Origin: Gammaproteobacteria bacterium | GTDB lineage: Bacteria; Pseudomonadota; Gammaproteobacteria; Acidiferrobacterales; SZUA-150 | Direction of reading: 5' to 3' | DNA length: 46,049 nt | Assembly: GCA_029880755.1 (NCBI GenBank) | Contig: JAOUNW010000002.1 | Span: forward strand, 1 to 46,049 | Part shown: in pieces, positions 11,406 to 46,049 of the stretch | Layout of the letters: the number at the start of each line of letters is the position of its first letter | How positions within the stretch are numbered: position 1 is the stretch's first letter | Notes under the pieces: model-generated | The model's database searches: none | Told to the model about the DNA's origin: nothing | The model's input: the letters and a program-made list of their open reading frames with translations, nothing else | Made by a program: the position numbers and the translations under genes

Positions 11406-11449
11406 AAAATAAAAACAGGATACAAGCCGCCATTAAGGCCTGTATCCTG
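11404..11449 (-). terminator. Rho-independent terminator of the upstream minus-strand operon
   Basis: The minus strand reads CAGGATACA-(16 nt)-TGTATCCTG followed by TTTTTATTTT. The U-tract runs directly into the sseA ATG. Confidence 0.75.
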
Positions 11450-11486: not shown

Positions 11487-11825
11487 TTAATATCCACCTT
11501 TACGACGCGACTCCGGCAAACCGGCAATACGGCCACCCTGTTTGCTGGGATCCTTTGGGAACAAGTCATACACATCCTTCTGGCTAATCTTACCACCCCA
11601 TTTATCAGACATTGCTTTAACGATATTTCGCGTGTTTGGCTGATTGCCATTATTATTAATGAATTCATCCCTGAGAAACTCAATCAGGTCCCAGTGCTTT
11701 TGGGTAAGATCGAGACCCTCTTCCTTGGCCAGATGTTCACCCAGCTCCTTGGTCCAGTCGCCGTGATCCACCAAATAACCGTTTGCAGTAGTTTCGATAG
11801 TTTTTCCATTAAATTCAATTGCCAT
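11487..11825 (-). CDS. DsrC/TusE-family protein lacking both conserved C-terminal cysteines (RspA-like)
   Basis: Collinear with the bona fide DsrC at 18684..19019 (GKTI..GYL...W......A..EG..LT..HW..I.FLR......P..R......AGLP). It ends AGLPESRRKGGY instead of AGLPKPTGCV. The internal QACKYAGLP is QGGRIAGLP here. SD GAGGGGG lies upstream. Confidence 0.8.
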   Translation of the reverse strand: MAIEFNGKTIETTANGYLVDHGDWTKELGEHLAKEEGLDLTQKHWDLIEFLRDEFINNNGNQPNTRNIVKAMSDKWGGKISQKDVYDLFPKDPSKQGGRIAGLPESRRKGGY

Positions 11826-11875: not shown

Positions 11876-12556
11876 TTACATAGTTTGTTCAGGCGACACT
11901 TCAGCGATATCCTTGTGCGGCACAAACAACCCGCAACCCAGATGCCGGAAGGGACCTAACCCTACCTGCTGAAGCTTCACTGAGTCTTTCACATCAAGTT
12001 CGGCCACCATTAAACTGCGCGTCGTCAGACTGCGCTCAGGTGTCCGAATAATTCTTTTCTTACCCGGTAACATTTTGTGCGGGCGTATTCCAATTTGCGC
12101 CAATTGCGCCACAACATTATCCATAAACACCGTTTCATCATCCTCGCTAACGACGTAACGGGAAAATACCGTAGTAATGTTGCTGAGTGCTCGCCGGTTC
12201 ACCTTGAGCACTTCCATGGCATTGCCTGCAACATCCAGAGTCTTGCCTACCAATGTATTTGCGTCAGCCTCCCGCTCTTTTGGCAGTCTCAAAATCAGGC
12301 GGGTACGCCGGGAAAGGTGGAGTATATCGTCTGGATTCTCCGGGCGCATCCATCCGTTGCCCATTTCGGAAATATGCAAGGGATGAACCCCGGCACCGGT
12401 TTCCTGTGCAAGCCATGGCAACTCCCTGAGTAAAGCGGCAGACAATGCCCAGGCATGATCCACTGGCAACGAGCGACACTGGATATTAAAGACAAGGTCG
12501 ATAATATCCTCGGGAATATTCTGATCCTGATTAGATTTGGTTTCGTTCCAGTACAT
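11876..12556 (-). CDS. Cas6/Cmx6-like RAMP-fold protein (orphan; no CRISPR array or cas neighbours)
   Basis: C-terminal glycine-rich loop GLGPFRHLGCG (nt 11930-11962) fits the Cas6 pattern G-h-G-x5-G-h-G. The N-terminal LPVDHAWALSAALLRELPWL...GVHPL resembles the type I-MYXAN Cas6 family from memory. Its ATG abuts the TGA of the upstream gene. Confidence 0.6.
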   Translation of the reverse strand: MYWNETKSNQDQNIPEDIIDLVFNIQCRSLPVDHAWALSAALLRELPWLAQETGAGVHPLHISEMGNGWMRPENPDDILHLSRRTRLILRLPKEREADANTLVGKTLDVAGNAMEVLKVNRRALSNITTVFSRYVVSEDDETVFMDNVVAQLAQIGIRPHKMLPGKKRIIRTPERSLTTRSLMVAELDVKDSVKLQQVGLGPFRHLGCGLFVPHKDIAEVSPEQTM

Positions 12557-31963: not shown

Positions 31964-33751
31964 CTAATCTTTTAAAACATGTCGACCATGTAGTTTCAGA
32001 AACAACAGGTAAAACACTACCAGAATCCAAGATCCCGCCAAAGATTCATTACTCTTCCGAAGAGATAAAGCGCATCCCGACGAACTACTGGCATCAACAA
32101 TTCCCTCATTATCTAATGGGGCCATTTGCACTGCACCACCAGCTATATCGATATTACCATTCACGGTCAAATCTGAATCGCCACGCCCCCCATCAACAAG
32201 ATGTAATTTCACGATATTACCTGTGATAATCGCACCTGTTGTGCCGTCAAAGCTAAACTCATACCAGTGATACTCCATATTATCGGCGGTCCTACCATAA
32301 AGATAGTATGAGTCTAGCTTTACCCCCTCTGGAAAGATTAACTCCACCACTACCTTGCCCTCCGGGGAGGAAATATTTTTCACAACAACCCACTGTACGC
32401 CTTGAGAAAATAATATGTATTGATCCCCAGGAAATGATTGGTCGTTAACTGTCGGACCGATGTTTGCGGGGTTCTGCTCAGTGACCTCTATTATCGTTCC
32501 CTCTGGTGAAATATAGGTGATCATATTTCCAAAAATATTTGGTATAGAGTCTACGTTTGGCGGATCTATTAGATTAACCGGCGCCCCTAGACCCATGCTT
32601 ATTGTTCCATTAATTGACAGGTCGCTGTCTCCCCTCTGCCCATCGACCAGATGTATTATCAAGACATTATCCAGGAACTCAACGCCTGTGCCTGTGTTTT
32701 TGTCATAATTGAATTCATACCAATGATCCTCGAGATTATCTGGTGTTTTGCCGTAGACGTAATAACCGCCCGGTCTGGATAGCTCTGGCAATATGGCTAT
32801 TATCTCTACGGAACCATCGCCTGAATTAACAGATTCTACGCGAATCTGCTGTATACCCTGGAATATCTCCACGATCTTATAGTCTTTATCTGGTGCACCA
32901 ATAACATCTATCACGGCAGGATCTATTTCATCCACCAATAACACATCACCGCTCTTGAAAGTAAAAAACGATAAATATCTCTGGTTGCTGTTCCATATGG
33001 ACGTAACATTCATTTGATCCTGATCGGGTATATTATCACTGTTCGCATCCTCAAAAACACTAGTCAACAGTACTAGATTGTCCTGCATAATTGGTATATC
33101 AGGATTGGTATAATTAACTACTGGCACCTCGCAATAGGGTCCTTTGGAAGTGCTGTAATATGAACAATCTGATAAAGGTGGTGCATTCAGATTATATCGA
33201 GGAAATCCATTTATATTATCCACCACCGTCATCCCATTCTCTCTCACCTTACCGAATACGGTAAACCCACCATCTGTATAGTCGAGGAAACTAGAGTTGT
33301 CGCCCATATTAAAGAACCACTGGGTTGTAGCACTATTCTCAATTCCTCCTTTTCTCGCCATTGCAATGGTGCCCCTAACATTCGATAGTCCTGGTTCATT
33401 TAATATTGCACCTAGCGATAATACGCTTGGGTATACGTAATTTGGAGCAGTCATAACGTCCCCCCACTCGCTACCTGCCCAATAGTAACCGCCTCCTTGC
33501 ACCACAAAACCCGGATCACTTCTATGTATAAAAGTATTGTTGTATGCCCCACTGGAAACATAATAGAGAAAATTCTTCACCGTAATAGGCGCGTTCCCAT
33601 CATATAGCTCCAATGGTATATCACCTGCAGTGGTCTGCATCTTAACTAGTGGTTTGGAATAACTATTATTAGATGCTACACATAAAATAATAATAAGCAG
33701 ATACTTGCTATGGTCAGTTATTCGACTCTTTATCTCTTCTACAAACCTCAT
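31964..33751 (-). CDS. Secreted cyclophilin-type peptidyl-prolyl isomerase fused to two choice-of-anchor-like repeats and a C-terminal hydrophobic anchor
   Basis: Cyclophilin motifs: FIHRSDPGFVVQGGG, GTIAMAR...SATTQWFFN, FTVFGKV..GMTVVDNI. A module of about 100 aa is duplicated, ending YY.YG.T.DN.E.HWYEF.....TG......N...(I/L)HLVDG.RGDSDL..NG.I. The tail is SSSSGCAL..., then a TM helix, then KLHGRH. The start was set at the ATG at 33751; the listed TTG is at 33853. Confidence 0.7.
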   Translation of the reverse strand: MRFVEEIKSRITDHSKYLLIIILCVASNNSYSKPLVKMQTTAGDIPLELYDGNAPITVKNFLYYVSSGAYNNTFIHRSDPGFVVQGGGYYWAGSEWGDVMTAPNYVYPSVLSLGAILNEPGLSNVRGTIAMARKGGIENSATTQWFFNMGDNSSFLDYTDGGFTVFGKVRENGMTVVDNINGFPRYNLNAPPLSDCSYYSTSKGPYCEVPVVNYTNPDIPIMQDNLVLLTSVFEDANSDNIPDQDQMNVTSIWNSNQRYLSFFTFKSGDVLLVDEIDPAVIDVIGAPDKDYKIVEIFQGIQQIRVESVNSGDGSVEIIAILPELSRPGGYYVYGKTPDNLEDHWYEFNYDKNTGTGVEFLDNVLIIHLVDGQRGDSDLSINGTISMGLGAPVNLIDPPNVDSIPNIFGNMITYISPEGTIIEVTEQNPANIGPTVNDQSFPGDQYILFSQGVQWVVVKNISSPEGKVVVELIFPEGVKLDSYYLYGRTADNMEYHWYEFSFDGTTGAIITGNIVKLHLVDGGRGDSDLTVNGNIDIAGGAVQMAPLDNEGIVDASSSSGCALSLRKSNESLAGSWILVVFYLLFLKLHGRHVLKD

Positions 33752-33865
33752 AAACACACCCCTACCTACTGCTTGGAAATACTTGATACACGCTACATTA
33801 GACCGTAGATATACTTCGATCTCATATTCGAATCGAATCTGGCTCCTCCGCAAGCATTCCTGTTG

Positions 33866-34775: not shown

Positions 34776-36839
34776 CTACTGCAAAACCAAATTCTTCAAA
34801 AGAAGAATATCTGATAAATTTATAACGCCATCCGGCGCACCCGGCGGATACAGGTCACCATGTGCAAGCACCATATTGGTGACCAGTGATGTATCAAGCA
34901 AAAGACGTTTCGCAATGACGTAATCAGCAGCGTTGATCAGCCCATCCGGAGAGCCAAGCGGGGCGAGATCTCCATCAGCATAATTAAAAACAAGGGGAAT
35001 GGGGTCCGAGCTGTCTGCCAGTCCATCCAGATCAGTATCGATAGCCAGCGGATTGAGGTCTACTCCCGCAATATAGCTGGCAGCGTTGCCATCATAGGCA
35101 ACCTCATCATAATCGCTCAACCCATCACCATCCGTATCTACCAATAAGGGGTTGGTGCCTATGCTGGCCTCCAGGCTATCCTCCAGGCCATCATTATCAT
35201 CGTCGCTGTCACAGGCGTTGCCAGCCAAATCGTTATCTGTATCTATCTGATCTAGATTTGGCACCAAAACACAATTATCATTATCATGATTTACGCCATC
35301 ACGGTCTGCGTCCAGACTGATTCGACCATATCCTGTCCGGGAGTCAAACCCCACGGTAGACACGTCTTTTGCCGTATCAATCAAACCACTACGAAACTGT
35401 AAATTAGACCAACCCGGATTCTGTGATAACAAAGATGCAAGAGCTCCTGTAACATGGGGTGCTGCCGCCGACGTTCCAGCAAAACTACTAGATAAGGACG
35501 TCACTACCCGATCCGGTGCGGCAACATCCGGTTTGAGTCTTCCGTCAGTCGTGGGACCTTCCGAACTAAATCCCTCAGGGCTGTCAGTCAAATTGGTAGC
35601 CCCGACACTAAATACAGAATTGCAATCCGCTGGCTGGCTTATACTGCTGGTATATGTCTTAGTACCAAGATCCGGTCCCAGAGAAAAAAGAGTCAACCTA
35701 ACATTTGGCGTGGAACTTCTGCTTTTCTTTACAACCAGATAATAAGCACCACTAGTTGCTGGCACATAATCTAGGATCTCGTAGGGATAGCTGGATGAAG
35801 TACCATTCTGCCGTCCCGTAGAGCTGGCAACGACAACACCTCCCGCAACTGGATCCGCATCATAAAGATAAAAATCGTAATCAATATTGGTAGTCGGATA
35901 CGCATCCCAATTAAGAATAAATCGGACGGAAACTCCTACGCTTAAATTTACTACATTAAAATTATTGCCGGCAGAAAATTCATGAAACAAATTACCATCA
36001 GTATCAGAGAATGTTCCCAGCCAGTGTTTTGCCCTATGATTTCCCATGGCGTTGACCCACATGATATTTCCAGTTTCAGCATAATTGGTAACATCACAAA
36101 TTGGTCCCGTACCATCATAGAAGGCAGCGGCATACCAACCCACAGAATGATTAATTATCCGAACACCAGCTGCCAGCATGTCAGCGGTCGCCTGCTCCAT
36201 CTCCAACAGGGTTCCAATTTTAGCCAAATAGAGCTGGGCATTTGGCGCCATATCGTAAACAATCTCTGCGACATTGGTTCCGTGGCTTATGCCTCCGTTT
36301 CCAGTACCGGTGTAATCTGTAATAACTAGATTTGCGGGTAAATCTCCTGAGGCCTGCGCACCAGCCAGACCGCTAAACCCCAAGTCAATCACACCTATTT
36401 TTGCTCCCGCACCCGCATATCCCAACGCCTGCATATCACCTCCACCGGTCAGTGACACGCCCTGACTAGTTACAGCCAGCGGCTGATTTGGATAAGGAAA
36501 TCTAACGAAGACGCCGTCAGGGAGATTCTGGATAAAAGACTTGAGTTGTTTTTCCGGCAGGCTTATCTGGTGCTGTTTGCCACGACTATAGCGCTGCTGT
36601 CCATCGTGTTTTGCAATGATATTTTGTGTCGTTGAAATATTATCAGTTTCAACAATGACCGTTATGAGCTTTTTGCTCTGGGAAATCCGAGTCTTCTCCC
36701 TCTTCAGAAAACTATAAAGCTGACCGGAGACCGAGCCCGCGGCACCAGCACTAATAGATAGCAATGACGATACAATAAAAACACACCCCAGTATCGCGGC
36801 ATGTTGTTTCTGCCACTGAGCACTTTTTCGTTCCCCCAC
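34776..36839 (-). CDS. Secreted S8 (subtilisin-family) serine peptidase with C-terminal TSP3-like Ca-binding repeats and two dockerin-like repeats
   Basis: Catalytic triad contexts GVIDLGF (Asp), HGTNVAE (His) and GTSAAAPHVTG (Ser). A DxDxDxxxDxxD-rich stretch is present (DTDNDLAGNACDSDDDNDGL, DTDGDGLSDYDE). The dockerin-like pair is GDLAPLGSPDGLINAADYVIAKRLLL and GDLYPPGAPDGVINLSDILLLKNLVL. Confidence 0.85.
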   Translation of the reverse strand: MGERKSAQWQKQHAAILGCVFIVSSLLSISAGAAGSVSGQLYSFLKREKTRISQSKKLITVIVETDNISTTQNIIAKHDGQQRYSRGKQHQISLPEKQLKSFIQNLPDGVFVRFPYPNQPLAVTSQGVSLTGGGDMQALGYAGAGAKIGVIDLGFSGLAGAQASGDLPANLVITDYTGTGNGGISHGTNVAEIVYDMAPNAQLYLAKIGTLLEMEQATADMLAAGVRIINHSVGWYAAAFYDGTGPICDVTNYAETGNIMWVNAMGNHRAKHWLGTFSDTDGNLFHEFSAGNNFNVVNLSVGVSVRFILNWDAYPTTNIDYDFYLYDADPVAGGVVVASSTGRQNGTSSSYPYEILDYVPATSGAYYLVVKKSRSSTPNVRLTLFSLGPDLGTKTYTSSISQPADCNSVFSVGATNLTDSPEGFSSEGPTTDGRLKPDVAAPDRVVTSLSSSFAGTSAAAPHVTGALASLLSQNPGWSNLQFRSGLIDTAKDVSTVGFDSRTGYGRISLDADRDGVNHDNDNCVLVPNLDQIDTDNDLAGNACDSDDDNDGLEDSLEASIGTNPLLVDTDGDGLSDYDEVAYDGNAASYIAGVDLNPLAIDTDLDGLADSSDPIPLVFNYADGDLAPLGSPDGLINAADYVIAKRLLLDTSLVTNMVLAHGDLYPPGAPDGVINLSDILLLKNLVLQ

Positions 36840-36934
36840 TGAGTTATCACTCCTCCAAACCAGAGGTAATTATCTAATATTTTCGTGGTTTGTGCCAGCC
36901 CAATATTTATTTATTTTCATTATTTATCATAGAG

Positions 36935-37705
36935 TTATACGCTTGAACTACTTTGTTTTCGCCCAAATCCAACCAATCCCAGCAACCCGGAACCGAATAA
37001 CCACACGGCAGCGGGAACGGGGACGGCACTAACCATGGGGGTCAGGGTACCGCTCCACGATGGCGTTTGATTGGGAAATGGCGCAGTAAGCATCGCGGTG
37101 CCCGGTACTCCGTCACCGTCACTGTCTACCGAGAACACGTTCATAAATCCGTCAACACTGGGATCGTTGGTGATCTGAAAAACTGACAAGACCGGGATAT
37201 CGTTGTTAACAGACCAGTCAAGGAAAAGACCGGTGGCGAACTGGTTGGCATCGGTTAAGCTGAACGCGTAGTCTGCATACAGGGTCAACCCCGGGGTAAA
37301 CAGCACTGTCTTGGCGGGGTTTGGTGCGCAAGTGCCGCTGCCCGTAATCTCTTGACACCTTTCGTTGGTGCCGTCGGTATAAAACCACTGAATGGTATCA
37401 GTTTTGAAATTGAAGTTCTGAATGCCGACTACATTGGTATCGTATTGGTACATTTGCATAATATCGGCGGTCTAATGATTGCCGGCGGTAGAATGATTAG
37501 TAGTTAAAGCTCCTAATCCTGGCACAGTGGGATCCATACCGCTAAAATCAAAGCGACCGACAACTGTTGTTTGAGTCATTGCCAACACCCCGACGGCATC
37601 ATACCAATCTACCGTCCCGGAAAAATTCCACAGGTGAGACGAGGCCTGGGTAACACCCGTGCCCAATGACAGTGCGATGGCGCCGGCGATAAGGGATATT
37701 TTCAT
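36935..37705 (-). pseudogene. VPLPA-CTERM paralog interrupted by a single in-frame TAG (split into the listed ORFs 37472..37705 and 36935..37459)
   Basis: The minus strand reads ...ACC GCC GGC AAT CAT TAG ACC GCC GAT ATT ATG CAA ATG TAC... = TAGNH*TADIMQMYQYD. The intact paralog has FHWTADVVQMYGYD at the same place, so TGG (Trp) has become TAG at 37472-37474. Both halves otherwise align end to end. Confidence 0.8.
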
Positions 37706-37778
37706 GGCTAACTCCTCGTGGAATACGTTATCTTTTATTTGTCTCGTTTTTGGTTGTGCCGGGTTTTTTCAGTCCAAG

Positions 37779-38558
37779 CTACGCTGTCATCTTCTTACGA
37801 GCAGCAACACCCACCAACCCCAGCAAACCGGAACCGAACAGCCATACCGCTGCCGGGAGAGGGACGGCCGAAAGAGTCCCGCTAAAGGCCGCTGTTTGAC
37901 CTGGAAATAGGTCAGTCAACATGGCGGCGCCTGGAGTGCCATCTAAATCGGTATCTACCGCAAAGACATTAATCGATCCATCAGGATTAATGCCTGTTGC
38001 CTCCATTACCCATAATATAGGCATATCCAAATTTACAGACCAATCCCAAAACGTGCCCAATCCAATCTGATTTTCGTTTGCCAGGGAGAAAGCATAATTT
38101 GCTACCACTTGTTCTTGGGAGAAACTTGTTCCACCCGGCGCAATGCAGGTATTGTTACCGGTCACTTCCCGACATTGGCCAATCTTATTTAAAGATCCGT
38201 CGTAATAGTTCCAATTGTTGACCTCAAAATCAAAATTTTGCTCCCCGCCAACACCGGTGTCATAACGATACATCGCAACAGTATCTATCACCCAAGGATA
38301 TCCCGCGAATGGCCGACCTGACTGAAGATATCCGGTCTCGTTGGCAAAATCGAAAGCCCCGGTAACGCCGTTGTCCACATAACTTGGTAGCAAGGTTCCT
38401 GACGAGTCATACCACTCCATGGTTCCGCTGAAATCATAATTGATGTTCTGGATCAAGGCAGCGCTGGCATGCGACATTACGCCTGACATTGCAATCCCCA
38501 ACGTAAGTACAGCGCCCGATTTTCCAGGGCCTTTTTTAATCTTTCTGAATTTTTCCAT
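37779..38558 (-). CDS. Secreted paralog (259 aa) with VPLPA-type PEP-CTERM-like sorting signal
   Basis: Signal peptide, shared family motifs, and C-terminal VPLPAAVWLFGSGLLGLVGVAARKK. AGGAGG SD. Confidence 0.8.
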   Translation of the reverse strand: MEKFRKIKKGPGKSGAVLTLGIAMSGVMSHASAALIQNINYDFSGTMEWYDSSGTLLPSYVDNGVTGAFDFANETGYLQSGRPFAGYPWVIDTVAMYRYDTGVGGEQNFDFEVNNWNYYDGSLNKIGQCREVTGNNTCIAPGGTSFSQEQVVANYAFSLANENQIGLGTFWDWSVNLDMPILWVMEATGINPDGSINVFAVDTDLDGTPGAAMLTDLFPGQTAAFSGTLSAVPLPAAVWLFGSGLLGLVGVAARKKMTA

Positions 38559-38773
38559 CTTCCGTTTCCTCCTGACAATACTAATTTTCTAACGACTCAA
38601 ATTTCGTTCTCCGCCAAAATCCTATGCCAAATTATTATTTTTATAATCATGTGCCATGCCAACGCGCATGGCATCAGCACAGTCGGCCATGCTGTAGCAT
38701 AGTAAACGCTGAATATATTCTTTAACTGCGAACGCCTGCTTGTGTTAATACTGTCTGAATCTTTGAAATCCGG

Positions 38774-39502
38774 CTAAGGGCATTTATTGTTTGTTCTATT
38801 TGCCTGAAACCACTTCGCCTCTTCCCGCCGGTTACCGTCCTGTGTCTGCAAAGTCCCATTGAATGCCGGTTGCTGCCCGGGAAAAGGTCCCGATAACAAC
38901 TGCGCACCGGGAATACCATCACCGTCTGAATCGAGTGTTTCTACTTGTACAAATCCGTCGGCGGTCGGATTATTAACCACTTCCATTACAACTAACATTG
39001 GTATATCCAGACTCCAGAACCAATCCACAAAGAAACCCATCGCGAATTGGTTTGGGTTATTCAAAGAAAAAGAATAAACCGGATGGCTGACGATCTGCGT
39101 ATAAATCGTATCCGATGGCGCAATACAGGTTCCGCTTCCTGTGATCTCTGTGCATCTTTTTCGGAAAGCGCTATTATTAAAATAGATGTATTCCGTCACA
39201 TCAAACACATACGTTTGATTACCACCTGTTTCAACATCGTAGAAAAAATATTGCACTACATCCGCTGTCCACAGGCTATTAAAGAGAGGCTGAGTAGTGC
39301 TTAATTGTCCCATTTGCTGTGATGTTACTTCTGAACCACAAAAATCCAGGTAACCGGACACGTTATTATCCACTACCCGCAGCGTTCCACCCGCATCGAC
39401 AAAATTCATGGTTCCGTCGAACTGCCAAAGTATGCCACTGTTGTCGCCTTGAGCCGCTCCGCCAAACATGAGAAAAAATACTATTGATACCAATTTTTTC
39501 AC
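38774..39502 (-). CDS. Secreted paralog (242 aa) lacking the C-terminal sorting signal
   Basis: Same family through ...FPGQQPAFNGTL. It then ends QTQDGNRREEAKWFQANRTNNKCP instead of VP(L/V)PAAVWLFGSG.... GTG start with a GGAG SD. Confidence 0.75.
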   Translation of the reverse strand: MKKLVSIVFFLMFGGAAQGDNSGILWQFDGTMNFVDAGGTLRVVDNNVSGYLDFCGSEVTSQQMGQLSTTQPLFNSLWTADVVQYFFYDVETGGNQTYVFDVTEYIYFNNSAFRKRCTEITGSGTCIAPSDTIYTQIVSHPVYSFSLNNPNQFAMGFFVDWFWSLDIPMLVVMEVVNNPTADGFVQVETLDSDGDGIPGAQLLSGPFPGQQPAFNGTLQTQDGNRREEAKWFQANRTNNKCP

Positions 39503-39551
39503 CCCACTTACTCCTCTAATATTTTTAGTCGAACGGATATCACCTGCGATT

Positions 39552-39592
39552 TTATAAATAAAAAAGCGCCCATTCCAAAAGGCGCTTTTTTA
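39552..39592 (-). terminator. Rho-independent terminator (bidirectional shape)
   Basis: AGCGCC (39565-39570) pairs with GGCGCT (39581-39586), with A/T runs on both sides. The minus strand gives the stem followed by TTTTTTATTTAT. Confidence 0.75.
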
Positions 39593-39628
39593 CATAACAA
39601 TGGCATCCCGGCCTTTACATAACTTTTC

Positions 39629-40900
39629 CTATTTCATTTTTCGTGTACGACGGCCAAAACCAACCAAGCCAATCAAACCAGAACCGAACAACCATACTGC
39701 CGCTGGCACCGGCACCACTGCATAAGGATCCGGACCATATAAAGACTCATCGAAATAATCTATGATTCGCTCAGCATCAGCCCTCAAGATAAATGCGTAC
39801 CCGCTGTAGGCATGGCCTTGAAGTGCATAGCCTGGTGTACCATAAAAACAGTCTGAGATATTATCTCTCAGTTCAGCATACCGTTTCACTCCAGGCCCAC
39901 GTTCGCCTGCCTGCCATTCCGCAGTTTCCACTAAGCAATCTGTGCCAACAGGAACTACTCCGGCACCATGGAAAGAAACCAGGTTATGGTACGCCTCATC
40001 AACCGGAGCACCTGTAACAGTAGCATTATTGCTGGTAGGATCAGTGTTGTTTACCACCGCACGACTGCTAAATTGCTGCGTATCACTACCAACCGTCACA
40101 TCGACGGTAATATCGCCATAACTTCGCATCTGAAAATCTCTTACAACCTCCGTGCTTGAGTAGGTGTAACTCACCGCGCCAGTAGTTGAATTGACTACTT
40201 GAAAGTAAACATCAAAAGCAAAATCAAACCCTACCTGACCTGCCATCGCTTCCAATGCATTCGGGTGTGATGCCATTACCGACCCACACCAACCTGTGGC
40301 ATCTGATAACGCGTAAGGCTGGAATGCCAAACCCGTTAAATGAGTACCTTCCGGCAAGCCTGTTACAGCGCCAAGGGAGCTATAATCAAAGAAACTATAA
40401 AATGCGAAATTCATATCATTTTGTCCAACAAGATAATCACCGTCATAATCGATTCTCATGTTGTTAAACTGCGATCCCGCATCAGAGGTATACCCCCATT
40501 TGTAAAAATTAACTGCTGAATCCATGCTGGCATCCGAAAATGTCCCTACATGCCCCGCAGGCGCACCAAAATCTGATTCAATCTGGCTTGGTCCATCCGG
40601 GGTTAATCCATCTGGGCCAAGGGTAATAACATGCTGGATTTGTCCTATCCCACCGGTGGGATCCAGGGCATTACCCTCCGCCAAGCCACCAAAACCATTT
40701 ATCGGGGCAAAATCCATTGCTGTCCGGCCTCCCGGTCCCGTATAACCCCAATCGTCAAAAGTTACAGTTCCCGTAGCATTATATCCCGCCATATCTATCG
40801 TTTGTGTAAAGATTGTCGCATAAGATGTCCCTGCGCTACCCGCCATAACGGCTGCGCCAAGCGCCATCCACAGGCATTTATCTAGTTGTTTATTGTTCAC
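39629..40900 (-). CDS. Larger secreted protein (about 423 aa) with VPLPA-type sorting signal, unrelated N-terminal domain
   Basis: It ends VVPVPAAVWLFGSGLIGLVGFGRRTRKMK. I prefer the GTG at 40900 (MNNKQLDKCLWMALGAAVMAGSAGTSYA signal peptide), which lies 10 nt after GGGAGG (40911-40916). The listed ORF extends to 41023. Confidence 0.7.
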   Translation of the reverse strand: MNNKQLDKCLWMALGAAVMAGSAGTSYATIFTQTIDMAGYNATGTVTFDDWGYTGPGGRTAMDFAPINGFGGLAEGNALDPTGGIGQIQHVITLGPDGLTPDGPSQIESDFGAPAGHVGTFSDASMDSAVNFYKWGYTSDAGSQFNNMRIDYDGDYLVGQNDMNFAFYSFFDYSSLGAVTGLPEGTHLTGLAFQPYALSDATGWCGSVMASHPNALEAMAGQVGFDFAFDVYFQVVNSTTGAVSYTYSSTEVVRDFQMRSYGDITVDVTVGSDTQQFSSRAVVNNTDPTSNNATVTGAPVDEAYHNLVSFHGAGVVPVGTDCLVETAEWQAGERGPGVKRYAELRDNISDCFYGTPGYALQGHAYSGYAFILRADAERIIDYFDESLYGPDPYAVVPVPAAVWLFGSGLIGLVGFGRRTRKMK

Positions 40901-41007
40901 TTTGATTAATCCTCCCAGTATCATTTTGCACCATATACGCTGCAGTATGCGCAATCTTCGTCGTGCTTCTAATCGCGTACATGCCTTGACCCTAACCAAT
41001 AAATATA

Positions 41008-41043
41008 TAAAGAAAAAAGGCAAGCCAGAAATCTGAGCTTGCC
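41008..41043 (-). terminator. Rho-independent terminator after the first paralog
   Basis: GGCAAGC (41019-41025) pairs with GCTTGCC (41037-41043). On the minus strand the stem is followed by TTTTTTCTTTAT. Confidence 0.7.
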
Positions 41044-41134
41044 TTTTTCTTTAAAAATGAGTTCCCAATGAGACGGAGACAAGTGGCTTATGCCAGAACT
41101 CCCCATGACCACCAGGACTCATTCACCTGCTTCC

Positions 41135-41866
41135 TTAGGCAACGCTCTTCTTGCGACGAGCAACACCTACCAGGCCCAGCAAACCTGAACCAAACAACCA
41201 TACGGCTGCGGGAACAGGTACCGGTGTCAGGGTGCCGTTGAAAGAAGGCTGCTGATCCGGGAAAGGAGATGTCAACATGGCTGTACCCAGAATACCGTCG
41301 CCATCGCTGTCTACAGATACCGTAGTCATCACGCCAGAAGGAGAGACGCTGGTGATCTGCTGAACAGACAATACAGGGATATCCTGGTTGGTTGACCAGT
41401 CAAAGAATGTACCGGCAGCAAACTGGCCAGCATTGGTCAGGCTGAACGCATAGTCTGCGTACAGACTCAAGCCAGGGGTGAACAATACAGTTTTGCCAGG
41501 ATTTGGTGCGCAAGTGCCACTACCGGTAACTTCGTGACAAGTCTCATTGGTGCCGTCTGTATAGAACCATTGAATGGAATCGGTCTTGAAATTGAAGTTC
41601 TGTACTCCACCAACATTGGTGTCATATCCATACATCTGCACTACATCAGCAGTCCAATGAAAACCGTTAAATGTGTTGCCAGAAGTAAAAGAACCTGTGC
41701 CGCCCGGTAAATCGAACGCGCCAACTACAGCTGGGTCAACAAACGCCAAAGTACCGCTGGCATCATAGAACTCCATGGTGCCTGCATAGGTATGGGTTGT
41801 AGCAGCTTGTGCAGCACCGACACCCATGGCCATAACAACGGCGGTCGCTAATACTGATTTCTTCAT
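41135..41866 (-). CDS. Secreted paralog (243 aa) with VPLPA-type PEP-CTERM-like sorting signal; promoter-proximal copy
   Basis: Signal peptide MKKSVLATAVVMAMGVGAAQA, family motifs, and C-terminal VPVPAAVWLFGSGLLGLVGVARRKK. GGAGGAG SD. Confidence 0.8.
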   Translation of the reverse strand: MKKSVLATAVVMAMGVGAAQAATTHTYAGTMEFYDASGTLAFVDPAVVGAFDLPGGTGSFTSGNTFNGFHWTADVVQMYGYDTNVGGVQNFNFKTDSIQWFYTDGTNETCHEVTGSGTCAPNPGKTVLFTPGLSLYADYAFSLTNAGQFAAGTFFDWSTNQDIPVLSVQQITSVSPSGVMTTVSVDSDGDGILGTAMLTSPFPDQQPSFNGTLTPVPVPAAVWLFGSGLLGLVGVARRKKSVA

Positions 41867-41972
41867 TATTAAACTCCTCCAGAAAAGTTAATTACAGTGC
41901 ACAAATACAGAAACTCCTTACTAAAACCGCTAGCCTTTCCAGAAAGACTGCACTTGTGCGCCATACCTGGAA

Positions 41973-41988
41973 AGCAATCCATGTGCCA
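41973..41988 (-). promoter_or_regulatory. Sigma-54 (-24/-12) promoter upstream of the paralog array
   Basis: The minus strand reads TTGGCACATGGATTGCTTT, that is TGGCAC-N5-TTGCT, matching the consensus TGGCAC-N5-TTGCW with exact spacing. It lies about 107 nt upstream of the ATG at 41866. Confidence 0.65.
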
Positions 41989-42422
41989 ATTTTATTTATT
42001 TCTTATATAACAATTAGTTAACTCACTTTGAAGGCGACTCTAATAGCGATCCTGACCTAAAGCGTAAAATTATCCGACAATCATATAACGGACTACTGCG
42101 CATAAATTCACGTGCTAACCTCTTTAATAACAACACTTTAAAGTGGCTATTTGCAGTAAAACTCCATCTTATTGAGAGGGTTTTTATACGCCACTTGAAT
42201 TTCACTATATGTGCGATTTACGACTCTACAGTGCAATAATTACTTGTAATTCAGATAGTTAATGCACTTTAAAAATGTTAAAAAAGCCGACACAGAGGGA
42301 TGGGTTAAGATGAACAACATGTATATGTGCGTTCCTGTTCGCAACACATAATCCATTAAAATCAGGCAATCTCGCCCAGCAACAATTTTAGCTAGCTTAG
42401 CATTTCTAAAGTTCGTCAGCTG

Positions 42423-44192
42423 TTAGCAATCGGAAAGTGCATCAACTAATTCAGGAATATTTTCCCGGTAATTCTGCCAACGTTGTAGAGATTTCCGATA
42501 AATCGGCTGTCTTACCTGATCAAAACTGGCCGTAATCGTTTGCCTGTCTGTATCGAAAAAATGCAAACACTGTTCTTGCCACTCAAGTCCACAAAAAGCC
42601 ACCAGTTCACGGCTTGTTGTTTCAAATTCACTCACCAAAATTTCGTATTCCAGATCAAAGAATTTCAGACCCAATACATTCTGCCAGTGATCCATTAATC
42701 TTCTATATTGCTTATAATAATGGGCAATGTCCCCTAGCTTCGTCGAATACGGGTGGGCTCCGCTAAAATTCTGGAAAAAAATAGACAAACATGTGTCCAA
42801 AGGATTTCTCTGGCAATGAATAACCCTTGCACCAGGAAACAATCGATCAATTACCCCGAGGTTCAGAAAGTTAGTGGGTAACTTATCTGTCACACGAAGC
42901 GCTCCCTGAGGGGAAATCTCATCCAAATGCGCCAGATATTGCTCAGCTATTTCCTCCGCTTTTTCCTGATTCCAATCCAGCACGCAAGCGGGATAGGCTT
43001 CATCAGATTCTAATCTTCGAGGCAAATCGGCAACAATTCGATTAATTTCAAGCAACTCTCCTGCACCGTAGACATCAGAGTGACTTGCCAGAATTTGCTC
43101 AGCCAGGCTTGTTCCGGAGCGTGGCATACCTACGATAAAGACCGGTAATTCAGCATTCAGCTGTGACTCATGCTGGTCTATGTCCATGTTGCTATTAAAT
43201 GCCAAAATTATACGGTCTATATTACTTGTATGCTCTTCCCTGTCGAAAGAATAGTTCAGCGCATCATTAGCCTTGCAAAAATCATCAAAAGCCTGGTCAT
43301 AATCGCCCTTTTTGTCATTTACATATCCTCTAGAGAAATACAGGCTTGCTTGATCACCGACACTGATCTGTTTGTTGCTTAAGAGAGCGCTAGCATGCTT
43401 TATCACGTCATCACATTGATCAAAGTGCCCGCAAAGATGGGCGTATGTCTCTATTGCAACCGTAGTTAGCGAATTTTTTTGTATCAGCTTCTTGATTATC
43501 TCTACCGATTTCTCTAGGTCTCGCCAAAGCAAATAGATATTCGATATCCCTGATAAAGCAACTGCATTTTCAGGATCCCTAGTTAGAACCTCTTTATAAA
43601 TATCCATTGCCTCATCTAGGGCGCCTTTCAAGCGAAGCGAGGTGGCCAATCGGCATTGCGCGTCTATCCAGCCCGGATTCTGTTCCAGCGTTTTTCGAAA
43701 AATATCTACCGCATCTTTGGTGTTACCCTTCGAAAGCAATGCGCTACCTAAGCTATGCAGCGCCTGCGGATAATGGGGCTGAAAATGTAATGCAGTCTGA
43801 AAACTTGTTATTGCCTCATCAACCCTTCCTGACAAATAAAAAGCATTTCCCAGGTTATTGTGGGCCAAGGCGTTATTTGGCTGTAACTCAATCGCTACTG
43901 CAAAACTGGACAATGCTTCATTAGCATTTCCTAAGGACGCATACGCATTTCCGAGATATATATATGCGTTTACGTTACTTCGATCGATGGATATCGCTCT
44001 CTTGCAGCATTTGATCACCTCCGGGAAATCTCCCTTCTGTCCGCTTATTGAAGCGCGCATGATCCATATATCAGGATCCTCTGGTATTTTACTGGATAGC
44101 TTTTTCAATAACTGCTCCGCTTCGCGTATTTTGCCGCTCTGCAAGCACTTAATTGCTTTGTTCTTAATTTTCACCAATGATAAGTTAGACAT
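42423..44192 (-). CDS. TPR-repeat protein fused to a PAPS-dependent sulfotransferase domain
   Basis: The N-terminal half has several TPR units (A..YLGNAYASLGNANEA...A.EL.P). The C-terminal half has the 5'-PSB loop VGMPRSGTSLAEQILASH and sulfotransferase-like downstream motifs. Confidence 0.75.
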   Translation of the reverse strand: MSNLSLVKIKNKAIKCLQSGKIREAEQLLKKLSSKIPEDPDIWIMRASISGQKGDFPEVIKCCKRAISIDRSNVNAYIYLGNAYASLGNANEALSSFAVAIELQPNNALAHNNLGNAFYLSGRVDEAITSFQTALHFQPHYPQALHSLGSALLSKGNTKDAVDIFRKTLEQNPGWIDAQCRLATSLRLKGALDEAMDIYKEVLTRDPENAVALSGISNIYLLWRDLEKSVEIIKKLIQKNSLTTVAIETYAHLCGHFDQCDDVIKHASALLSNKQISVGDQASLYFSRGYVNDKKGDYDQAFDDFCKANDALNYSFDREEHTSNIDRIILAFNSNMDIDQHESQLNAELPVFIVGMPRSGTSLAEQILASHSDVYGAGELLEINRIVADLPRRLESDEAYPACVLDWNQEKAEEIAEQYLAHLDEISPQGALRVTDKLPTNFLNLGVIDRLFPGARVIHCQRNPLDTCLSIFFQNFSGAHPYSTKLGDIAHYYKQYRRLMDHWQNVLGLKFFDLEYEILVSEFETTSRELVAFCGLEWQEQCLHFFDTDRQTITASFDQVRQPIYRKSLQRWQNYRENIPELVDALSDC

Positions 44193-44302
44193 TTTTAATA
44201 TTCGCTGGCAGATAATCGGATAAATGGATTAGAGTCTACGCTATAATCATAGCATATTATGAATAATCTGACCGAGCACCTCATCTCATAACACAACACG
44301 CC

Positions 44303-46049
44303 ATGAAAACAGGACGCAACGATCCGTGCCCATGCGGCAGCAAAAGAAAGTTTAAAAAGTGCTGCGGGCAGTTGATCAACAAAAAATCGGAGACGCAGAA
44401 CATTGACACATCGTCGATCCTCAACCAAGCATGGCAATATTTCTGCATCGGACAAATGGAACAGGCGGGAGCCCTGTATCAAAAAATATTACAGATTGAG
44501 CCCAAAAATGTAGATGCACTACACCTGCTCAGCGGCGTCGCTTCCAAAACCGGGCATTTTAAATCAGCAGAGGATCTACTGAAAAAAGCCATTACCATTA
44601 AATCCGATGTGCCAGAATTTCACAATAATCTTGGTTATGTGCTTCAAATGCAGAGACGTCCCGCTGCGGCTATGCCCCACTATCGTCGCGCCCTGGAGTT
44701 AAATCCCGCTTATCCGAACGCTCACCTTAATCTTGCCAACTCCTTTCGTCTTCTCGGCAGATTGGATAATGCGATAACTCACTACAAAAAAGCGCTCGAG
44801 CTGGATCCGGGTAATTTTCTATCTCATACGAATTATCTGAATCTAATGAACTTCTCATCGAGATACAACAGAAACCAAATATTTCAGGAGCATGTAAAAT
44901 TCGGTGAATACATTTACAAATCTCTGAATCCAACGAATCCTGGTTATACCCACACTCGGGACAGAACAGGAAAAATTAGAATTGGCTATATCTCTGCCGA
45001 TTTTAGAACCCATTCCGTTGCGTATTATATTGAACCAATTCTTGCTAATCATGACTCTGACAATTTCGAGATTTTCGCTTATTACAACTATCACGTTAAA
45101 GATGCTATAACACAGAGGCTTGAGACATTCAGCCACCACTGGCGAGACATTCAACATCTGAGCGACACTGCCATAGCAAAAATCATTCATAATGACAAGA
45201 TCGATATTCTTGTCGATCTATCCGGGCATACTGCAGACAACCGCTTGGGTGTTTTTGTCTACAAACCTGCGCCAATTCAGGTTACTTATTTAGGCTACCC
45301 AAATACAACGGGAATCTCAACAATGGATTACAGACTAACTGATGAAGTCACTGATCCTACGGGAACTACTGAAGCTTTTCATACTGAAAAACTTATTCGT
45401 CTACCTACGTGTTTTTGTTGTTACCAACCACCGGATAGCTACCCCAATGTAGCTCCACTGCCGGCTCTAGATACAGGGCATATCACATTTGGTTCTTTTA
45501 ATAATTTTGCAAAAGTGACTCCCGAAGTTATATCTCTTTGGGCCAGGCTACTTACCGTCATCCCAGACGCGAGAATAGTATTAAAATCAAGTGGACTTGA
45601 CGAGATAGAGCAACAACGCTACATCAGAGAGGAGTTTGCCAAATTTAATATTAGTGCTAAGCAAATCACCTTATTAGGAAATGACCCAGACACCGAGTCT
45701 CACCTACAACGATATGGAACAATCGATATTGGGCTCGATCCTTTCCCTTACAATGGAACGACAACCACTTGTGAAGCTTTATGGATGGGGGTGCCAGTTA
45801 TCACATTGAAAGGACGCGATCACCGCAGCCGAGTCGGTTCCAGCCTGTTAACAGCAATTACTCTTAGTGAGTTTATTGCCAATTCACTCGAAGACTATGT
45901 AGGTATCGCAAGAACCATGTTTTCAAATCTCCCCTATCTCGCCAAATTGCGATCGGGCTTACGAGAACAAATGCAGAATTCCCCATTAATGGACTATGCT
46001 ACATTTACAAAACAACTCGAAGATACATATAGAGGTATTTGGGAGAAAT
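44303..46049 (+). CDS. SEC-C motif + TPR + GT41-like (SPINDLY/OGT-type) glycosyltransferase, 3'-truncated by the window end
   Basis: This ORF is not in the track because it runs off the window end. Hand translation from the ATG at 44303 gives MKTGRNDPCPCGSKRKFKKCCGQ (SEC-C zinc motif). TPR units follow (ALHLLSGVA...NNLGYVL...AHLNLANSF). The OGT-like C-terminal domain follows (IRIGYISADFRTHSV, DILVDLSGHT, VTYLGYPNTTG, DIGLDPFPYNGTTTTCEALWMGVPVITL). Confidence 0.75.
   Translation, partial: MKTGRNDPCPCGSKRKFKKCCGQLINKKSETQNIDTSSILNQAWQYFCIGQMEQAGALYQKILQIEPKNVDALHLLSGVASKTGHFKSAEDLLKKAITIKSDVPEFHNNLGYVLQMQRRPAAAMPHYRRALELNPAYPNAHLNLANSFRLLGRLDNAITHYKKALELDPGNFLSHTNYLNLMNFSSRYNRNQIFQEHVKFGEYIYKSLNPTNPGYTHTRDRTGKIRIGYISADFRTHSVAYYIEPILANHDSDNFEIFAYYNYHVKDAITQRLETFSHHWRDIQHLSDTAIAKIIHNDKIDILVDLSGHTADNRLGVFVYKPAPIQVTYLGYPNTTGISTMDYRLTDEVTDPTGTTEAFHTEKLIRLPTCFCCYQPPDSYPNVAPLPALDTGHITFGSFNNFAKVTPEVISLWARLLTVIPDARIVLKSSGLDEIEQQRYIREEFAKFNISAKQITLLGNDPDTESHLQRYGTIDIGLDPFPYNGTTTTCEALWMGVPVITLKGRDHRSRVGSSLLTAITLSEFIANSLEDYVGIARTMFSNLPYLAKLRSGLREQMQNSPLMDYATFTKQLEDTYRGIWEK

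Follow-up and report, generated by a model that had tools for sequence, protein, structure and literature searches.

A tandem array of VPLPA-CTERM-tailed proteins with an uncatalogued all-beta core, probably cargo of an exosortase sorting system in an uncultured gammaproteobacterium

We analysed a 46,049-nucleotide stretch of DNA from a gammaproteobacterium (contig JAOUNW010000002.1 of assembly GCA_029880755.1; hereafter the window), the minus strand of which carries at positions 36935-41866 five genes in series: four paralogs, W1 to W4, and a gene for an unrelated protein of 423 aa. This array is probably the cargo of a VPLPA-CTERM/exosortase sorting system of the XrtD type, tied to an exopolysaccharide locus, in an uncultured sulfur-oxidising gammaproteobacterium. 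The reading is carried by the sorting tails and the selection on them, by a sigma-54 promoter and box upstream of W1, by regulatory genes on the same contig, by a conserved gene neighbourhood and by XrtD exosortases in syntenic relatives. The core that the paralogs share is an uncatalogued all-beta domain family, a new element of an otherwise known system. A previous reading made from the sequence only had presented the array as an orphan with no exosortase in sight. This framing does not hold, as past the window end the contig carries a PEP-CTERM-type export gene together with PrsR, PrsK and a PrsT-like gene; the apparently missing exosortase would be an edge effect of the window.

Sorting tails, regulators and the exosortase

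The C-termini of W1, W3, W4 and the 423-aa protein read VP(V/L)PAAVWLFGSGL(L/I)GLVG followed by a basic cluster, a tail that the sequence-only reading had attributed to the VPLPA-CTERM variant of PEP-CTERM. The search with the NCBIfam VPLPA-CTERM model TIGR03370 (curated cutoff 25.35 bits) supports the attribution: it matched the extreme C-terminus of all four proteins above the cutoff, with 30.6 (W1), 28.9 (W3), 26.1 (W4) and 26.7 bits (423-aa protein). With the generic PEP-CTERM models of NCBIfam and Pfam the array tails score just under the cutoffs. The three parts of the tail (signature motif, transmembrane helix and Arg/Lys cluster) and the N-terminal signal peptide were read from the translations. 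Over the 19 shared tail codons, synonymous divergence is near saturation (pS 0.58-0.77) and non-synonymous divergence is minimal (pN 0-0.06); the tail peptide is therefore under purifying selection and not a recent copy, as had been proposed from the many synonymous differences.

In the mechanism that we favour, each array protein would be exported by Sec via its N-terminal signal peptide, and the C-terminal helix, judging by its sequence and the hidden Markov model match, would hold it in the inner membrane with the Arg/Lys cluster in the cytoplasm. If the published PEP-CTERM model applies, an exosortase encoded elsewhere in the genome would cleave at the VPLPA motif, and the protein would then reach the surface of the cell or an exopolysaccharide matrix that may be sulfated. 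The core of ~190 aa would most likely have a structural or adhesive function in the matrix, comparable to that of the floc protein PepA though without homology to it, and its DxDxDG-type loop may bind calcium.

To follow the contig past the window we used an ENA contig (L003) that is 100% identical to window positions 36910-46049 and reaches 13 kb beyond the window end. Outward from W1 it encodes the TPR-sulfotransferase, two TPR-GT41 glycosyltransferases and a FadL/Toluene_X-like outer-membrane protein, and further out a 596-aa protein with two copies of the core, a small Wza-like export protein, PrsR, PrsK and a PrsT-like TPR gene, within which the contig ends. The best match of the Wza-like protein is an export family of the XrtA/PEP-CTERM system (139 bits, cutoff 180). 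PrsR (451 aa) scored 464 bits with TIGR02915 on a 275-aa fragment (full-length cutoff 502.6), and PrsK (712 aa) shares 43% identity across its full length with another PrsK, whose score is 675 bits. Thus PrsK, PrsR and PrsT are all represented on the array's contig, PrsK by identity and the PrsT-like gene in part, and the PrsK/PrsR two-component system is encoded ~10 kb from W1.

According to Haft 2006 (PMC1569441), PEP-CTERM genes mostly form operons of one gene with a long region upstream. The PEP-CTERM box described there has a 17-nt motif with TTTACA at its end, followed after a spacer of ~63 nt (range 32-92) by a sigma-54 motif, and its phylogenetic profile matches PrsK, PrsR and PrsT. 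Upstream of W1 lies a sigma-54 (-24/-12) promoter-like site, TGGCACATGGATTGC, the sole exact match to TGGCAC-N5-TTGC on both strands of the window, and further upstream lies the motif TGTCGGATAATTTTAC, which is likely the enhancer site, motif 1 of the box. The published arrangement (-24 GG/-12 GC with an enhancer motif within 32-92 nt) was found at W1 only, with a spacer of 75 nt. The pepA gene of Aquincola is RpoN-dependent, with the promoter TGGCAC/CTGCTT (PMC9850573). GG-N10-GC sites stand at similar positions upstream of orthologs on three related contigs (L007, L005 and L006). On two of them a TGTCGGATAATTTTAC-type motif precedes the ortholog as well (L007 4593-4608, L006 9689-9704), so that both elements recur there though the proteins are only 43-48% identical; in L005 the site before the family member is sigma-54-like, and the upstream motif is weak (2 mismatches) and ~295 nt away. 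Alignment of the upstream regions with MAFFT was uninformative save for the shared motif, because the spacers differ. W1, a single-gene unit with a sigma-54 promoter, an upstream PrsR-box-like motif and a terminator, would be the regulated copy, probably switched on by PrsK/PrsR, for which both the sites and the genes are present. A PrsR-box-like motif was seen also in the short prsK-prsR intergenic region of L006 (1789-1804, minus strand) and L007 (1153-1168, minus strand), which hints at autoregulation. At the end of the L005 contig, from a Methylomarinum metagenome-assembled genome (MAG), a second PEP-CTERM-box-like pair with a 75-nt spacer (11412-11427 and 11503-11517) presumably precedes another, cut-off cargo gene.

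No exosortase was recognised among the window open reading frames (ORFs) of at least 120 aa or in the 13 kb of contig past the window end. To this extent the sequence-only reading was right about the window, whereas its remark that exopolysaccharide genes are also lacking is only nominally true, because the TPR-sulfotransferase and TPR-GT41 genes belong to a neighbourhood that recurs beside PrsK/PrsR. Exosortases are present in relatives. A 412-kb contig of one relative (L114) encodes a PrsR and a PrsK 76 and 65% identical to those of the array's contig and keeps the same gene frame between PrsR and CysG; 8 kb upstream of its PrsR stands an Exosortase_EpsH+EpsI gene. NCBI and JGI annotate full-length homologs of this exosortase (57-65% identity) in Thiohalobacter, Candidatus Thiodiazotropha and Chromatiaceae as VPLPA-CTERM-specific exosortase XrtD. 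L114 shares the locus frame but holds zero copies of the core domain, which marks the array as an insertion, specific to its lineage, in a conserved locus. One 83-kb MAG contig unites an exosortase 51-56% identical to named XrtD proteins with PrsT/K/R and with family members (a 1187-aa protein with three core copies and a small VPLPA-tailed one), next to XrtA-system-like chain-length and tyrosine-kinase genes, a PAPS synthase, a FadL-like gene and five TPR proteins. In a third context, L007, PrsR, TPR-sulfotransferases, a family member, GT41 and a FadL-like gene occur together, and the same sample holds a separate XrtD-led exopolysaccharide contig at nearly equal coverage. In 22 related genome loci, the 10 kb around PrsK showed no polytopic exosortase candidate.

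Several points weigh against assigning the array to an XrtD-type system. The organism's own exosortase was not recovered, the contig stopping inside the PrsT-like gene; to judge by synteny with L114 and L115, it would lie a few kb upstream of that gene. All five XrtD-like candidates (P0281, P0293, P0327, P0378 and P0374) were traced to other samples, and another contig, L117, had no nucleotide overlap with the end of the array's contig. The NCBIfam names of the accessory genes are those of XrtA systems while the exosortases of relatives are named XrtD, and therefore both the subtype and the presence of XrtD in this genome are what we infer from relatives. Of the five array genes only W1 has the regulatory box: no recognisable sigma-54 site precedes W2, W3, W4, the 423-aa gene or the downstream S8 subtilase gene, and the region upstream of W3 holds a TGGCAC half-site only. 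The upstream-motif pattern was derived from the very loci in which it was then counted, so the enrichment statistics are partly circular. Cleavage, surface location, calcium binding and a matrix function, finally, are putative.

Neighbouring genes and possible modification of the cargo

The sulfotransferase and glycosyltransferase genes upstream of W1 belong to runs of TPR-sulfotransferase and TPR-GT41 genes seen near the family (window 42423-44192 and 44456-46049; L003 6238-8106; L007 2591-12964), with sulfotransferase domains on record in the window and L007 and GT41 domains in L003 and L007. PrsK/PrsR, the FadL-like protein and TPR proteins are found near a family member in both L006 and L007. 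Five unclassified TPR proteins accompany the family member in L006 (10826-19916), and the locus of a related MAG (L089 4193-5920) encodes a bifunctional ATP sulfurylase/APS kinase (PAPS synthase). Together, the runs and the PAPS synthase suggest a sulfated matrix or modified cargo.

One may ask whether the array proteins are mainly substrates of the cytoplasmic TPR-GT41 and TPR-sulfotransferase enzymes, so that modification before export, and not the fold, defines their role. Enzymes of the GT41 type glycosylate proteins. Family members have TPR proteins at their sides in the window, L006 and L007, and in L005 two unscanned ORFs of similar size take this place; the sulfotransferase or GT41 domains in the window, L003 and L007 as well as the PAPS synthase in the L089 locus would fit this role; TPR-guided protein modification was raised for the PEP-CTERM system already by Haft 2006 (PMC1569441). 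However, the sulfotransferases could equally act on the exopolysaccharide, and no conserved sequon was found, the FNGT site varying to FSGT and FGGT. We consider this explanation rather unlikely.

The FadL-like gene lies beside PrsR and a large surface protein in all four contexts in which it was found (L003, L006, L007 and L114), and its product has weak similarity to the PorV/PorQ family (38-49 bits). We know of no identified outer-membrane shuttle for exosortase cargo. A wider proposal is that the core, an undescribed beta fold, forms with the TPR-sulfotransferase, the TPR-GT41 enzyme and the FadL/PorV-like protein a conserved module that modifies and exports the cargo of XrtD systems in sulfur- and methane-oxidising Gammaproteobacteria, in which the FadL-like protein would be that shuttle; we put it forward as a doubtful conjecture.

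The array copies and their core domain

The sequence-only reading had counted five head-to-tail paralogs of ~240 aa. The tandem arrangement and the split copy stand, but there are four paralogs and not five; the unrelated protein among them had been recognised correctly (Table 1), and its core has no recognised domain in Pfam and NCBIfam scans. By inspection, a GGAGG-type Shine-Dalgarno sequence precedes every array gene, and the N-terminus of every product resembles a signal peptide, in agreement with what had been noted. Terminator-like hairpins follow W1 and the 423-aa gene, and none was found in the 73-nt gap between W3 and the downstream W4; the Rfam scan of the whole window gave zero matches.

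The C-terminus of W2 (window 38774-38860; segment EEAKWFQANRTNNKCP) reads ...GTLQTQDGNRREEAKWFQANRTNNKCP / ...DGNRREEAKWFQANRTNNKCP. Its end, DGNRREEAKWFQANRTNNKCP, aligns weakly to the start of the tail (PAAVWLF), without the hydrophobic helix, and thus resembles a decayed tail; W2 could be a secreted variant without anchor or a decaying copy. In W4 a single TAG at 37472-37474 replaces the near-invariant Trp of HWTAD (TGG to TAG). The same TAG is present in L003, because that contig is 100% identical to the window across the region. In whole-gene comparisons of the paralogs, pS is 0.7-0.97 and pN/pS 0.3-0.6. The lowest pN/pS, 0.31, is that of W4 against W1, which speaks for a recent nonsense mutation or a polymorphism in the population and less for a long-standing pseudogene. 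All four paralogs go back to old duplications: W1 and W3 remain intact, W2 is without its anchor and W4 contains the nonsense codon.

These two damaged copies, together with a regulatory box kept by W1 only, could be taken to mean that the array is a decaying remnant without present function, a set of duplicates bound to become pseudogenes in a genome that has perhaps lost its exosortase; genomes with few PEP-CTERM genes and no EpsH are noted by Haft 2006 (PMC1569441). Decay of this kind is improbable, since W1 and W3 are intact, tail pN does not exceed 0.06 against a pS of ~0.6-0.8, whole-gene pN/pS stays at 0.3-0.6 despite saturated pS, W4 has the low ratio just described, and the contig has undamaged PrsK, PrsR and export genes.

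All sequence blocks that the sequence-only reading had listed, including the Cys pair and the calcium-loop-like motif, are present in the array and are kept in homologs outside it, where the Cys pair is invariant and the DSDGDG loop nearly so. A word-indexed search of 5.8 billion proteins returned eight outside homologs, all metagenomic, with 39-48% identity and all with a VPLPA tail, and a profile search of 1.84 billion cluster representatives returned 195 matches, 31 of them at E < 1e-30. The core occurs singly in proteins of ~190-280 aa, and larger ones, of up to 1602 aa, contain as many as eight copies. Among 158 matches, ~69 ends are VPLPA-like, 12 PEP-like, 20 Cys-containing and 5 dockerin-like. 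Since it stands under differing C-terminal anchors and in differing architectures, the core behaves as a portable extracellular module. The 596-aa protein with two core copies has a Cys-containing three-part tail, SAGCSLST...DRSDWLLVLGFLVALGLWRRG, unmatched by the NCBIfam sorting models, and adjoins an uncalled 151-aa ORF (L003 1649-2104, minus strand) with CPBP/Rce1-like protease motifs (EEWFFR, SLLH and THGLSN). The pairing of a CPBP-like ORF with a Cys-tailed protein is repeated in L114 (12459-13013 and 15164-17032), and 20 of the 158 family matches have this tail type. The pairing resembles the Cys-containing sorting signals with dedicated CPBP proteases that were described by Haft (bioRxiv 10.1101/2023.06.07.544157), and may be an unmodelled variant of them.

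That the core cannot be assigned to a family, as first stated from the sequence, is borne out by profile and structure searches, none of which gave a well-characterised match. Pfam found nothing on the W cores, and on 70 near and distant members it found PEP-CTERM tails and Ig-like domains only; over the same 70 members, NCBIfam and Pfam together recognised sorting tails and, in two members, Big_9, cadherin-like and tandem-95 repeat domains, and nothing on the core. A comparison of the core profile with PDB sequences gave a best E of 0.33, which is not significant. AlphaFold2, run on W1 with a 12-sequence alignment, predicted an all-beta structure (mean pLDDT 84, core blocks mostly >90) of twelve strands of 3 to 15 residues, most of them 10 or longer, in up-and-down order. 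Foldseek with this model found nothing in PDB at E <= 0.001 (best TM ~0.2-0.27) and nothing significant in BFVD, and the core is possibly a new fold.

Two other identities of the core were weighed. The top NCBIfam match of W1 is the floc_PepA family NF033554 (36.1 bits, E 5.9e-09, residues 47-240), as it is for 44 of the 70 family members, and the array proteins could accordingly be divergent PepA proteins with a homologous core and the same job. This is highly improbable: the score is far under the 80-bit cutoff, and the match is absent from all ten cores tested without their tails, which refutes homology. Matches to the FxDxF family are likewise confined to the last 35-45 residues, and those to THxN, in distant relatives, to the last 20-40; membership of PepA, FxDxF, THxN and EDSAP-1 was rejected, the matches being tail-driven and below cutoff. 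There is, too, very little chance that the core is an integral outer-membrane beta-barrel and not a soluble matrix protein, despite a signal peptide, twelve long up-and-down strands and a Thermus outer-membrane protein among the weak Foldseek matches (TM ~0.2, none significant): rejection rests on domain architecture, with two to eight cores in tandem inside large proteins beside Ig-like or tandem-95 domains, a conserved Cys pair and an acidic DxDxDG loop, and an inner-membrane-type helix and basic cluster, not a C-terminal beta-signal, after the core.

Table 1. Features of the array and its surroundings. Positions are those of the window unless a related contig is named.
Feature	Position	Strand	Description	Score or remark
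W1	41135..41866	-	243 aa, intact; signal peptide, ~190-aa all-beta core (predicted), VPLPA-CTERM tail	TIGR03370 30.6 bits
423-aa protein	39629..40900	-	secreted (predicted), between W1 and W2, VPLPA-CTERM tail	TIGR03370 26.7 bits
W2	38774..39502	-	242 aa, GTG start, core intact, sorting tail lost or decayed	no TIGR03370 match
W3	37779..38558	-	259 aa, intact, VPLPA-CTERM tail	TIGR03370 28.9 bits
W4	36935..37705	-	interrupted by in-frame TAG, tail intact	TIGR03370 26.1 bits
Sigma-54 (-24/-12) promoter-like site	41974..41988	-	TGGCACATGGATTGC	107 nt upstream of W1 ATG
PrsR-box-like motif	42064..42079	-	TGTCGGATAATTTTAC	75 nt upstream of W1 sigma-54 site
Terminator-like hairpin after W1	41013..41043	-	intrinsic type, with U-tract	-23.2 kcal/mol, z -5.9 (window 41008-41052)
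Terminator-like hairpin after 423-aa gene	39560..39590	-	intrinsic type, with U-tract	-19.3 kcal/mol, z -5.8 (window 39556-39594)
TPR-repeat sulfotransferase	42423..44192	-	Sulfotransfer_3 and TPR; no obvious signal peptide	E 9.6e-44 (Sulfotransfer_3)
TPR + GT41 (O-GlcNAc-transferase-like) glycosyltransferase	44456..46049	+	window end cuts 17 nt	Glyco_transf_41 on the product of L003 8127-9737
S8 subtilase	34776..36839	-	secreted (predicted); TSP3 calcium-binding repeats (TSP3_bac)	Peptidase_S8 E 4.1e-28
596-aa protein	L003 2222-4012	-	two core copies and Ig-like domain	~7 kb past window end
FadL/Toluene_X-like outer-membrane protein	L003 4175-5545; L006 7739-9094; L007 14811 onward; L114 13759-15063	- (L003)		

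The S8 subtilase adjoins the array on its downstream side and is a candidate functional link only. Further downstream (31964-33853) the window encodes a secreted cyclophilin-type peptidyl-prolyl isomerase fused to a choice-of-anchor U domain, and the XrtD locus of another contig, L128, also holds such an isomerase. The window, which stems from a metagenome, contains in addition a reverse-type dsr cluster, with a DsrA 86-87% identical to those of Acidiferrobacterales MAGs, and a Cas6/Cmx6 (type I-MYXAN) homolog (11876-12556, minus strand; 121.8 bits, above cutoff), among whose neighbouring ORFs no other cas genes were recognised.

Relation to known sorting systems

The sorting system, its regulation, the paralog expansion and passengers without known domains are already published features of PEP-CTERM systems. 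What is new is the core domain family, possibly its fold, and its steady association with TPR-sulfotransferase, GT41 and FadL-like genes. The family adds one more uncatalogued passenger domain to the cargo repertoire of exosortases, with ~195 cluster representatives and none in Pfam, NCBIfam or PDB, and with a confident all-beta prediction without structural neighbour in PDB or BFVD it could justify a new family model. PrsK/PrsR, the FadL-like protein, the TPR-sulfotransferases and the GT41 enzymes, to which one related MAG adds a PAPS synthase, make up a concrete, testable gene set that may bear on sulfated matrix formation and on the outer-membrane step of exosortase sorting in uncultured sulfur oxidisers. 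The array does not call into question the rule by which an exosortase accompanies PEP-CTERM-type tails.

Compared with the PEP-CTERM/EpsH system and its PrsK, PrsR and PrsT (PMC1569441), the locus has the same single-gene operon with a long upstream region (W1), the same box layout (a TTTAC-type motif, a 75-nt spacer and a sigma-54 site 107 nt from the ATG) and the same regulators, with a PrsT-like gene, on one contig. The lineage-specific paralog expansion and the passengers without known domains are the published norm of that system. The locus differs in its signature, VPLPA and not PEP, in having the box on one of five genes of the tail region, and in the TPR-sulfotransferase and GT41 genes interleaved at the locus. 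As in the choice-of-anchor domains of NCBIfam, the core is a passenger upstream of differing C-terminal sorting signals, but no curated choice-of-anchor model matches it. PepA of Zoogloea and Aquincola (NF033554; PMC9850573) appears to be the best functional analogue, being likewise a small secreted, exosortase-sorted protein with an RpoN-type promoter and a link to PrsK/PrsR and exopolysaccharide; the array cores differ from it in having no detectable core homology, the model match being tail-driven and sub-cutoff. The closest likeness is to the VPLPA-CTERM/XrtD system. The array differs in a passenger domain that no library describes and in that the genome's cognate exosortase was not observed, but it shares with that system tails made of motif, hydrophobic helix and basic cluster on signal-peptide proteins, the use of one tail by several unrelated proteins of a genome, and XrtD-named exosortases at the syntenic locus of relatives and across sulfur-oxidising Gammaproteobacteria.

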